Part shown: positions 3,054 through 6,107 of the stretch, piece after piece
Numbering within the stretch: position 1 is the stretch's first letter
Layout: each line of letters begins with the position of its first letter
Assembly (NCBI GenBank): GCA_963666735.1
Contig: OY762926.1
Location: 1,088,001-1,152,000, forward strand
Origin: Gemmatimonadota bacterium
GTDB lineage: Bacteria > Gemmatimonadota > Gemmatimonadetes > Palauibacterales > Palauibacteraceae
Direction: 5' to 3'
Length of the DNA: 64,000 nt
Program-made: the position numbers and the translations under genes
The notes under the pieces: model-generated
Database searches by the model: none
Told to the model about the DNA's origin: nothing
Seen by the model: the letters and a program-made list of their open reading frames with translations, nothing else

Positions 3054-4054
3054 TCCGGCGGCTCCGCAAGAAGATTGACGATGAGGCGGACCATCAAGTC
3101 CTTGTCCGCGGGCGCGCTCTCGGCGATCAATAGGGTGAGAGCGGTGAGCGCTTGCGGATTGAGCCCATGCTCAATTCTCTCCTGCGCCGCGTAGAGCAGA
3201 AAGAGCAACGCACCGATACGCTTGTTGCCATCGGTGAACGGGTGATCCTTGACGATGAAGTAGAGTACGTGTGCGGCCTTTTCCTCGCGGGACCCATAAA
3301 GCGGCTCGCCGAACATGGTCTGCTCGATGTTGCCGAGGATGGCCTCCAGTGCCTCGCCCCGGGGGTTTCCGAACAATTCGGACGCTTCGCCTGATGCCAT
3401 AAGGTCGCGCTTGAACTTGGCGATCGCCGCGACGGCGCGAGGATGTTCGAGGGCGCTCGTCGCGGGCCGCGCGCCGGGCGGCGTCATCAGGCGGTCTTCG
3501 TCGTATTCGAGCAGAAGCCGCCAGGTGTCGGCGTAACCCGTGATGAGTTCCAGTACCGCCCGGCCCGTGTCGTCCACCAAGGCCTGATTTCGCAGCGTCC
3601 GGGCGAGCAGGTCGAGCGACCCGCGGGCTTCCCGCAAGCCGCGCTCGGCGAGTCTTCCGTGGTTGAGGGTGTAGCCGCTGACCAGGTGCTTGCGGAGCGT
3701 ACGCGTGGCCCACTGGCGGAAGCGTGCGGCGCGCTTCGAACTCACCCGGTATCCGACCGAAATGATCGCGTCCAGGTTGTAGTGTCCAATTCGCCGCCGG
3801 ACCCGTCGGGCCCCCTCGAATCGAACTACCAAGAAATCCTTGGTAGTTGCCGATTCCTCCAACTCGCCGTCGGCAAAGATGTTCCGCAGATGCTGCCGGA
3901 TGTTTTCCGTGGTCGAGGCAAACACCGCCGCCATCTGCTCCCGGGTAAGCCAGACGGTCTCCTGCTCCAAGCGCACGTCCAGCGCGCCCTCGCCGTCCGG
4001 TCCCTCGTATACGACAACCTCACCGCCCGGATGCACCTCGTGACTGTCCGTCAC
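3050..4054 (-). CDS. RhuM-family DNA-binding domain fused to a Fic/Doc domain
   Basis: N-terminal [14 protein letters not shown]...[15 protein letters not shown]...FRQWAT (RhuM-like); C-terminal [11 protein letters not shown]ic/Doc motif. Confidence 0.9.
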
Positions 4055-5700
4055 TCGGAGGCAAGGCTGGAAGCGAACGACTGCGCACCCTTGGTCCGAA
4101 TTTCGCCCGAGATGAGCTTGGGGAGCAGGGCGTCGCGAAGGCTGGCGAGGGTGCGGGACTCGCGACCCGCGTTGCTGGCTCTCTCGAAGAGCGATCCCGC
4201 GACTTCACCGAACCGGGCAGCGAGCCGCTTTGGAGGAACGACCATCGGGAGCCCTCCCAGCGCGGTTGGTGGAACCCGCTGGCGCCCACTTGTGCCGCTC
4301 ATGTTCTGGATTGCGAATTCGCGAAAGCCGGCACTTCGAGCAAGGCAGTACGCGAACTGATTCGGAAGCGGGGGTTGCGGCTTCAGTACGATGTACTCTG
4401 TAGAGCCCCATCCGATCTCGCCATCGGCCAAGAAATCCACGTAGGCCGTCTTGCCGTTCTCAAGGCACGGTGTGATTCGGGCGACGAGCGTGTCGCCGTT
4501 TGTGAATCGCATGCCGGACCCGAACGATCGAACAGCTACCGAATGCGGCATGTGACCACGGGTCGGCATCTTGGCCATTGGCAGATACGGAGCGGCCTGT
4601 CCTTTTCCGAGAGATCGTCGCGGGTTGACCTCAATGCGCTCCGCCAAGGTCGCAACCTCCCACCCGTCCGGCACCTCTCCCATCTCGGAATCCCCCAGCC
4701 GGGCGGGAAACAGGTCGGCGATGTCTCGCGGCAATCCCGTGTCGCGGCCGTCCAGCTTGGCCCGAACGGGGTCGAAATCGACGAACCAGGATTTGAACAG
4801 CGCCCGCGCCATCGCCTCCAGCGTCTCGTTCATCCGCCGGTTCAACTCGATCTTGTCATCCAGCGTCCCGAGGATGTGGGCGATGGCACGTTGCTCGGAA
4901 AGGGGAGGCAGCGGCACATCGAGTTGCGCCAACGCGTCCGTCGGCACTCGTTGGCGTCCGGACGTGCCGGTCATCTGGCCAATCGCATATTCCCGAACGA
5001 GATTCGAGCGCGCAGCGTAGAAAGCGTACTCGGAATCAGTTACCCCGGGTCGACCGCGAACCACGATGAATTCCGTCGACCCATGGGCAACATCGCCTAT
5101 GCCGGAGTTCGCATAGTAGCGGGCGATCTTGCCGTTCTCCAAGCACGGCGTGATCCGGGCGAACAGGGTATCACCGTGCTGGAACCTGCTACCGCTGCCT
5201 CGAAACTCTCTGATACGTGCCGAGCGAACAGCACGACGGGTTGGATCGACAGCGGCCATATCCACGAATGGGGTTGGGCTGCCACGTTCGATCGGCACGG
5301 CAGGGTTGACCACGAACGCTTCGCTGAACGGCATGGTGGACCAATCCTCGATGCGTGCTCGACCGTCCACCTCGGAGACTGCGGTCGGAGGCTGCATGGT
5401 CACCGCGTCGCGCCGGATGATCGCGCGAAAGGCATCGTCGGTCCTTGCCCAATCCACGACATCGACCTTGAACGGCAAGTCGGAGTCGCCGAGCGCCTCG
5501 TCCAAGGCGGAGACTGTGCGTAGCGAGAGAGGCTCCTCACCCATGATCGCCAGATCGAGGTCGGAGTAATCCTTCGCGGTCCAGGTCGCGCGCGACCCAA
5601 ACGCGAGCACCTCGCGATCCGGTACATGGCTCCGTAGAGCGCGGCGGACGATGGCCCAATGGTCGGGCCGGAGGTCGACGTTAGGTGCGGGGGTCCTCAT
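4051..5700 (-). CDS. hsdS: MntA-like minimal nucleotidyltransferase fused to type I R-M specificity subunit HsdS
   Basis: First ~105 aa carry FGSRATWTAKDYSDLD (GSX10DXD) and LPFKVDVVD, followed in frame by two TRDs and the HsdS spacers (PPLSEQRAIAHILGTLDDKIELNRRMNETLE; LRDALLPKLISGEI). ATG 5700 overlaps the HEPN stop (ATGA); alternative start 5709. Confidence 0.93.
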   Translation of the reverse strand: MRTPAPNVDLRPDHWAIVRRALRSHVPDREVLAFGSRATWTAKDYSDLDLAIMGEEPLSLRTVSALDEALGDSDLPFKVDVVDWARTDDAFRAIIRRDAVTMQPPTAVSEVDGRARIEDWSTMPFSEAFVVNPAVPIERGSPTPFVDMAAVDPTRRAVRSARIREFRGSGSRFQHGDTLFARITPCLENGKIARYYANSGIGDVAHGSTEFIVVRGRPGVTDSEYAFYAARSNLVREYAIGQMTGTSGRQRVPTDALAQLDVPLPPLSEQRAIAHILGTLDDKIELNRRMNETLEAMARALFKSWFVDFDPVRAKLDGRDTGLPRDIADLFPARLGDSEMGEVPDGWEVATLAERIEVNPRRSLGKGQAAPYLPMAKMPTRGHMPHSVAVRSFGSGMRFTNGDTLVARITPCLENGKTAYVDFLADGEIGWGSTEYIVLKPQPPLPNQFAYCLARSAGFREFAIQNMSGTSGRQRVPPTALGGLPMVVPPKRLAARFGEVAGSLFERASNAGRESRTLASLRDALLPKLISGEIRTKGAQSFASSLASE

Positions 5701-6107
5701 TCCAGCCATTTCCGCAACTGGTCCCGGAGATAGGCCGCCTCTTCGAGGAACCCCGGAATGGCCGCAACCACGGTCAGCGCGATTGGCTCGCTGTAGGTGT
5801 GGCTCGTCATACCGCGCATCTTCCGGTAGTCACGCCACTCGGGCCACGCTCCTAGCAGCAGCCCCTGCTCGTTCGCCGTGCGGATCTGATCCTGAAAGGT
5901 CATTTGATCCAACAGCGCCGGGTTCGCTGCCGTGTATTCCAAGTAGCGTTTCAGGGTCTTGTAGCCGAGTTCGTAGGTGAACTCGAAGCGCTGAATCAGG
6001 CCGTCGCGAATCTGAAGGTCGCTCGTGTCCTTCCGATACCGCTCCAGTCCCTCCTCCAGCCGTTGTATCGCGCGTTTGAGCGGCGTGATGTCCGGGATGT
6101 CATACAT
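5697..6107 (-). CDS. HEPN-domain protein (HI0074/HepT-like putative RNase toxin)
   Basis: RDGLIQRFEFTYEL signature of the HI0074 family and RGMTSHTY matching RX4HXY. ATG 6107 lies 4 nt after the hsdM stop. Confidence 0.9.
   Translation of the reverse strand: MYDIPDITPLKRAIQRLEEGLERYRKDTSDLQIRDGLIQRFEFTYELGYKTLKRYLEYTAANPALLDQMTFQDQIRTANEQGLLLGAWPEWRDYRKMRGMTSHTYSEPIALTVVAAIPGFLEEAAYLRDQLRKWLE

Follow-up and report, generated by a model that had tools for sequence, protein, structure and literature searches.

A type I restriction-modification (R-M) operon lies at the beginning of the 64,000-nucleotide stretch analysed here (contig OY762926.1 of a Gemmatimonadota bacterium; hereafter, the window). 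Within it, a putative HEPN toxin is followed by a gene in which a predicted minimal nucleotidyltransferase (MNT) antitoxin is fused in frame to the specificity subunit, HsdS. Sequence comparison showed intact motifs in this architecture, selection on both toxin and antitoxin, and repeated in-frame grafting of different toxin-antitoxin (TA) pairs. The MNT::HsdS gene is a real and widespread variant of a known theme, that of R-M guards, and is apparently undescribed. The reading preferred here, with a probability of about 0.5, is that of a class I type VII TA system in which antitoxin supply is tied to the synthesis and turnover of HsdS, making the pair an addiction or back-up module. An HI0074-type HEPN RNase and an HI0073-type MNT would be lodged between the hsdM and hsdS genes in one subfamily of type I R-M systems; with the antitoxin synthesised as the N-terminal part of HsdS, toxin silencing is probably tied to the making of the specificity subunit.

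HEPN-MNT pairs are among the commonest TA pairs and what triggers them is largely unknown. An antitoxin built into a restriction subunit would give them a defined candidate trigger that is directly testable; a cultured host of the fused form (Zymomonas mobilis ATCC 10988, plasmid pZMOB01) and natural split controls (on Acetobacter plasmids) exist. Annotation is affected too, such genes being labelled plain 'restriction endonuclease subunit S', as is strain engineering, where deletion of the whole gene for better transformation would take out the antitoxin as well.

The toxin and the fusion gene

All genes of the operon are on the minus strand, in the order hsdM, HEPN, MNT::HsdS, rhuM/Fic, hsdR. 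This order had been given by the original prediction, made from the sequence alone, and was borne out by translated open reading frames (ORFs), Pfam and NCBIfam profiles, and coordinates. The HEPN gene (5697..6107) encodes 136 aa and scored above cut-off with PF08780 (112.6 bits) and with TIGR01987, the HI0074 model (81.3 bits); it also matched HI0074 (1jog, E = 1e-17) and a Legionella HEPN (8xdj, E = 1.5e-9). Its RX4HXY motif, RGMTSHTY (5793..5816; R98, H103, Y105), was present as predicted and invariant in 25/25 aligned HEPNs. Y105 is the expected AMP acceptor by analogy with Shewanella's HepT/MntA, a class I pair, where the MNT AMPylates the tyrosine of RX4HXY (PMC7641770; this and all other papers are cited from the accessible parts of their text).

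The fusion gene (4051..5700) encodes 549 aa and its ATG start overlaps the HEPN stop codon. The N-terminus matched Polbeta/NTP_transf_2 (GSRATWTAKDYSDLD) and Methylase_S followed downstream in the same frame, in agreement with the claim that no stop codon intervenes before the first target recognition domain (TRD). The predicted MNT domain occupies aa 1-103 (5392..5700) and carries the GSX10DXD motif at 5554..5598 (G35, S36, D47, D49). It matched HI0073 (1no5, E = 3e-24; Foldseek TM(target) 0.91-0.94), and scored 35.2 bits with the NCBIfam MntA equivalog, below its cut-off of 60. A variable linker (5344..5391) leads to TRD1 (4906..5343), a central region conserved in this HsdS subfamily (4660..4905; DDKIELNRR...WFVDFDPV), and TRD2 with the C-terminal conserved helix (4051..4659), the limits of both TRDs being approximate. 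TRD1 (4906-5343) and TRD2 (4237-4659) were closely alike, which suggests similar half-sites.

The window therefore holds the sequence features of class I HepT/MntA pairs, in which the HEPN belongs to PF08780 or PF01934: a PF08780 HEPN with RX4HXY and an adjoining MNT with GSX10DXD. The likeness drawn originally was upheld, and the fusion was found to recur, to be conserved and to be confined to hsd genes. A predicted HEPN-MNT complex lent weak support to binding of the two, scoring 0.43 against 0.13 for the best control, with contact agreement between runs of at least 96% and partner pLDDT of at least 88. In calibration, passes at or below 0.60 came from 5/78 solved complexes and from all four passing mismatches of 180, and the score may reflect memory, similar complexes having already been solved.

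Integrity and possible use of the fusion gene

P0001, a near-identical database protein, agrees with the window fusion in both start and length; a second in-frame ATG lies 9 nt ahead of that start. In the P0001 model (mean pLDDT 93.8), an MNT domain is joined to a complete HsdS with two TRDs by a linker whose pLDDT is <50 at aa 108-116; with Foldseek, the parts of the model matched HI0073 and known HsdS structures. Metagenomic contigs from two studies bridged the junction between MNT and TRD1. One from run X1, possibly the source sample, spanned 5168-5546 with 3 mismatches and no gap, while another from run X2, of a different study, spanned 4834-5471 with 0 mismatches and no gap. The best holders of the window sequence were sponge metagenomes; no RNA data set was among the holders listed, which has no bearing on expression. 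Its closest named homologues came from Gemmatimonadetes assemblies. The original prediction had allowed that the fusion might be a sequencing error or a one-off loss of a stop codon; the bridging contigs rule out both, together with recurrence in relatives, where the MNT was present in 148 of the best 150 representatives (at 50% identity) and GSX10DXD in 146. The possibility of dead motifs likewise failed, the motifs being intact.

Another of its reservations, that HsdS might be made from an internal start, is unlikely to apply in the window, judging from the candidate codons. At codon 102, the ribosome-binding match of the ATG was weak, with 3 nt, and among 120 relatives this position was Val in 88, Met in 7 and unparsed in 17; a start at the ATG of codon 123 would lose a conserved Trp. 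In 60/100 non-redundant full-length fusions, the stretch of 32 codons at the junction contained no in-frame ATG, so that in these HsdS is probably produced solely in fused form.

The linker differed between relatives with near-identical MNTs, varying together with TRD1. In contigs from runs X2 and X5, TRD1 was substituted by other sequence, with joints at 4893/4902 to 5434/5442, so that the breakpoints fell in the 3' end of the MNT. Such exchange of TRDs between strains suggests that the fused HsdS is in use for methylation and restriction.

Distribution of the fusion

A search with the MNT part among proteins of 303-966 aa gave 1079 hits among 1502 candidates; among the 120 matches listed, 119 contained Methylase_S and all 120 contained GSX10DXD. 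The PADLOC specificity-subunit model PDLC03138 already covers the MNT, and such fusions therefore lie unnoticed in R-M collections. In a ranking that favours fusions, 20/80 genome loci of this HsdS subfamily were fused, each with a HEPN gene directly upstream. These fused loci came from 11 phylum-level groups: Acidobacteriota, Chloroflexota, Pseudomonadota, Spirochaetota, Thermodesulfobacteriota, Zixibacteria, Poribacteria, Rhodothermales, Gemmatimonadota, Actinomycetota and Latescibacterota. Among Gemmatimonadota, the MNT type occurred in 35/301 genomes, nearly all from two families. On viral contigs, neither MNT nor HEPN was found at any of 80 loci of this HsdS subfamily; an MNT scan of such contigs confirmed 0/33 candidates, and phage records gave no match. 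Two further candidates were set aside: P0027, apparently an HsdM-HEPN-MNT-HsdS polyprotein, reads like frameshift errors, and the hsdSp deletion in strain ZM4 (PMC8432527) concerns a different Z. mobilis locus, of order hsdR-hsdM-x-hsdS.

Specificity and repeated origin

In 401 evenly drawn Pseudomonadota genomes, the MNT type was present in 75. All of the approximately 119 MNT matches there were read: 15 were fused to HsdS, one was fused to HsdM and two were split before hsdS, while of the remainder 7 adjoined hsd remnants or the end of a contig and all others were free. All 15 HsdS fusions belonged to one HsdS subfamily. A single clade of fused MNTs was rejected (p-AU = 1.1e-4; 27/83 representative rows, 100 columns). 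Across 72 loci, identity of HEPN was correlated with that of MNT (rho = 0.67) and identity of the HsdS core with that of HsdM (0.64), while correlations between TA and R-M components were between -0.16 and 0.08; HEPNs were <45% identical in 227 of the 315 pairs of loci whose HsdMs were >=80% identical. These comparisons showed that HEPN-MNT pairs have been swapped between R-M chassis with the reading frame preserved. Apparent intermediates of grafting included tandem cassettes (L015) and an additional HEPN (L013), and four MNT::MNT::HsdS combinations were found, all in frame, in which the first MNT was always intact and the orphan second MNT had decayed in some. Loci L361, L362, L365, L088 and L478, with tandem MNT::MNT::HsdS and a single HEPN, are apparently remnants of TA-pair replacement. 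MNTs of the window type paired with two HEPN types only ~30% alike; at L204, L207 and L253 the MNT was ~80% identical to that of the window and the HEPN ~30%, the toxin having been swapped beneath one antitoxin type.

Free, split and fused states were intermixed on the MNT tree, which would also suit a different explanation, that the HEPN-MNT pair is a selfish cassette in a known insertion slot. Its read-through into hsdS would be tolerated and then locked in once the hsdS start was lost. Any benefit would be a side effect, for instance in expression, or because the MNT DNA acts as a constant homology arm when TRD1 is exchanged. Terminal fusions to HsdS are tolerated, and the position of the TRD1 breakpoints in the MNT 3' end fits the homology arm. 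Embedded cargo is, moreover, frequent in type I R-M operons (PMC3710099). However, a passenger of this kind does not readily account for the confinement of the fusion: none of 157 free MNTs was fused to an unrelated gene or had a tail >60 aa, despite a close downstream ORF in 38/150. Nor does it predict an excess of 15 fused over 2 split loci, where chance would yield the correct frame in at most 1/3 (binomial p = 4e-6, the loci being non-independent), or that the fusion was rebuilt in several MNT clades. This explanation was considered unlikely.

Dependence on the HEPN

Pooling of loci and removal of duplicates left 127 fused genes, four of them with too little upstream DNA, and hence 123 that could be assessed. 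An adjacent HEPN was present in 119/123, with both motifs intact in 113. The DXD was broken in 2/4 fusions without a HEPN, against 0/119 of the others (Fisher p = 8e-4, among related loci), and RX4HXY was retained in 103/108 distinct HEPNs beside fusions. Median dN/dS was 0.10 for HEPN (55 usable) and 0.11 for MNT (58 usable), from 60 non-independent pairs, showing that both evolve under purifying selection. Taken together, these patterns indicate that the fused MNT serves the HEPN. The DXD-to-DXN change at L245 might be taken as the mark of a decayed clade, but this is too simple, as its sisters L241, L243 and L244 retain DXD with a degenerate HEPN.

Another explanation, in which the R-M complex or a protein of the invader is what the MNT modifies and the HEPN is its substrate-binding partner, follows the first proposal for HI0073/HI0074, which a PDB title names a two-protein nucleotidyltransferase. 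The tether would indeed place the enzyme next to HsdM. Yet retention of RX4HXY in nearly all HEPNs, together with decay of the DXD upon loss of the HEPN and in some orphan second MNTs, is not what such a role would lead one to expect, and one member of the subfamily is an AMPylated RNase (PMC11586414). It was regarded as very improbable.

Proposed coupling of the toxin to HsdS

Under the preferred reading, the MNT would AMPylate the tyrosine of RX4HXY and so silence the RNase, as in known relatives (PMC7641770). As a domain of HsdS, the antitoxin would be produced one-to-one with it and suffer the same fate. Were the locus lost, the operon shut off, or methylase-free HsdS turned over, newly made HEPN would stay unmodified, cleave RNA and arrest the cell. 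So described, the module would be linked to how specificity subunit is supplied, and would not be an allosteric sensor of DNA mimics.

Several observations weigh against this. Most MNT relatives are free-standing (95/120 rows in the Pseudomonadota sample), and in 18/100 fusions the linker retains an ATG that has a ribosome-binding-like site (against 7% in the background), as expected of recent fusions; such retention of the old hsdS start also agrees with a passenger origin. Split MNT and hsdS genes occurred in apparently whole operons (Acetobacter plasmids, with the same gene order; L257, L467). At eight loci (L213, L230, L340, L369, L402, L405, L430 and L431) both TA motifs survive next to what is left of the hsd genes, hsdS being absent or no longer in frame, and since the pair persists there, it is unable to enforce a working HsdS; that TA pairs outlast R-M decay is again as a selfish cassette would behave. 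Furthermore, as AMPylation is covalent, loss of the MNT would free only new toxin, and as in-frame grafting is forced once the hsdS start is lost, the bias towards fusion need not mean benefit. The original suggestion that loss of hsdS could release the RNase therefore stands for the MNT part of the gene only; it does not extend to the remainder, given these eight loci and the in-frame deletions of TRDs behind intact MNTs described next.

The examination of 120 proteins included 92 short ones bearing the MNT, of which six (P0270, P0271, P0272, P0277, P0285 and P0288; P0271, P0277, P0285 and P0288 judged by eye) keep the MNT and the HsdM-binding helices, with both TRDs largely deleted in frame; protein searches show in-frame products only, which limits this count as evidence for decoys. 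At L401 (1630-5183, G335:C222), the order is HEPN, MNT::HsdM, HEPN and an MNT::HsdS skeleton of 241 aa (P0270). No hsdR was found behind this skeleton, and HsdR and Methylase_S matches were absent from the genomes of L401 and G355, both possibly incomplete. L336/L489 (G355) represents a separate double TRD deletion, in a genome whose HsdM looks shortened.

These skeletons bear on a further explanation, that of a true R-M guard, in which the MNT on HsdS would hold the HEPN bound or modified at M2S or R2M2S until anti-restriction proteins release the RNase and abort the infection. Besides PrrC and Ronin, the R-M guards known include PARIS and EcoR22I. The triggers here would be Ocr, ArdA or Stp-like proteins, disassembly of the complex, or ATP drain during restriction, with PrrC and Ronin as models, both of which have been shown to guard R-M systems (PMC3710099, PMC12707154, bioRxiv 10.1101/2023.04.06.535777). 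Confinement of the fusion to hsd subunits and its reconstruction with several TA types agree with a guard, as do the six TRD-deleted proteins and the decoy-like L401, with its two HEPNs and no hsdR. But the linker is variable and of low confidence, the TA pair shows no co-variation with HsdM or the HsdS core, hence no sign of an allosteric link, and one MNT type serves two dissimilar HEPN types. Covalent silencing would be slow to reverse, split forms exist in whole operons, and TA pairs persist after loss of hsdS. Out-of-frame decay is also common, as the eight loci attest, so that TRD-less skeletons may be plain decay, as the shortened HsdM of G355 might suggest; L401 hints at a Ronin-like decoy by analogy, but decay explains it too. 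A guard of this kind was held to be unlikely. Its elaboration into a modular design, with interchangeable HEPN-MNT grafts, the TRD-less, hsdR-less skeletons as decoys and a CRISPR parallel in Cmr1-MntA, is no less tentative.

Comparison with known systems

A role as back-up was proposed in 2013 for HEPN genes within R-M operons (PMC3710099), and a study of a Legionella HEPN-MNT pair proposed low ATP, MNT turnover or a phosphodiesterase as triggers (PMC11586414). HepT/MntA (PMC7641770) and the Legionella pair (PMC11586414) resemble the window in having an RX4HXY toxin beside a GSX10DXD antitoxin, PF08780 and PF01909 domains and a short, HI0073-like MNT; both are free-standing, whereas in the window the antitoxin forms one domain of HsdS and the pair sits among type I R-M genes. 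PrrC (EcoprrI) is likewise a HEPN RNase whose gene is embedded in a type I R-M operon, in many cases along with RhuM/Fic genes (PMC3710099, PMC12707154). It is, however, an ABC-ATPase-HEPN protein kept latent through non-covalent contact with the R-M enzyme, while the window has a small HEPN and an enzymatic antitoxin fused to HsdS; the N-terminal ABC-ATPase that marks PrrC and RloC is lacking from the window HEPN, which has 136 aa and PF08780 only.

Ronin shares a toxin silenced by HsdMS, and its decoy layout is resembled by the TRD-less, hsdR-less relatives of the window operon such as L401 (bioRxiv 10.1101/2023.04.06.535777). Its toxin, RonA, is a 61-aa membrane protein with no antitoxin enzyme, and Ronin lacks hsdR, in contrast to the window, where hsdR is whole, the R-M system complete and the toxin a HEPN. 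A PDB chain named Cmr1-MntA (9z7q chain I, 9z7v, 9z7x), to judge from its name only, offers a parallel in which MntA is fused to another defence-complex subunit, a point in favour of a guard; it differs in belonging to type III CRISPR, in the C-terminal position of the fusion and in its distant MNT (E = 4e-5), and literature searches located no paper on it. In FhepTA (PMC13000451), the MNT is also a domain of a larger protein, but it is fused to its own toxin and not to an R-M subunit, and the terms 'HsdS' and 'restriction' are absent from the accessible text.

No account of MNT::HsdS was found in a literature search that left subscription journals and most supplements outside its scope, nor in the accessible parts of PMC12839542, PMC13000451, PMC2701414 and bioRxiv 10.1101/2024.01.29.577857. 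The supplement text of PMC3710099 gave no hit, although its unseen tables, or bioRxiv supplements, could list the architecture.

Other genes of the operon and its surroundings

The R-M system of the window is complete, with HsdM, an HsdS with two TRDs and two conserved regions, and HsdR, all with intact motifs. The methyltransferase subunit gene, hsdM (6112..7674, minus strand), encodes 520 aa with PF02384 and PF12161, and its catalytic motifs DPCCGSSG and NPPF are intact. The restriction subunit gene, hsdR (1..3053, minus strand; TIGR00348 above cut-off), extends beyond the start of the window to 1046 aa in the genome and retains PD..ELK, Walker A and DEAH. Between hsdS and hsdR lies the gene of a RhuM-Fic/Doc protein (3050..4054, minus strand; 334 aa; PF13310, PF02661; PADLOC PDC-S23), which is ordinary cargo of type I R-M operons; it has a Doc-like HPFTDGNKR motif and is possibly a second protein-modifying cargo of the operon. 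Of the three ATGA overlaps originally described, those of HEPN with MNT and of rhuM with hsdR were confirmed, as was the 4-nt gap after hsdM, whereas hsdS and rhuM overlap by GTGA.

Past hsdR, just beyond the start of the window (L491:1-9900), there were an unassigned 231-aa gene, an IS3-like transposase and a reverse-transcriptase-like ORF, as judged by eye; the opposite end of the operon adjoins thymidine kinase. The genome that contains the window has two more type I R-M loci (L005, L006), neither with an MNT fusion, and three more HEPN-MNT pairs, all free-standing, at G000:C1 443965, 3224165 and 20149 (L001, L003 and L004).

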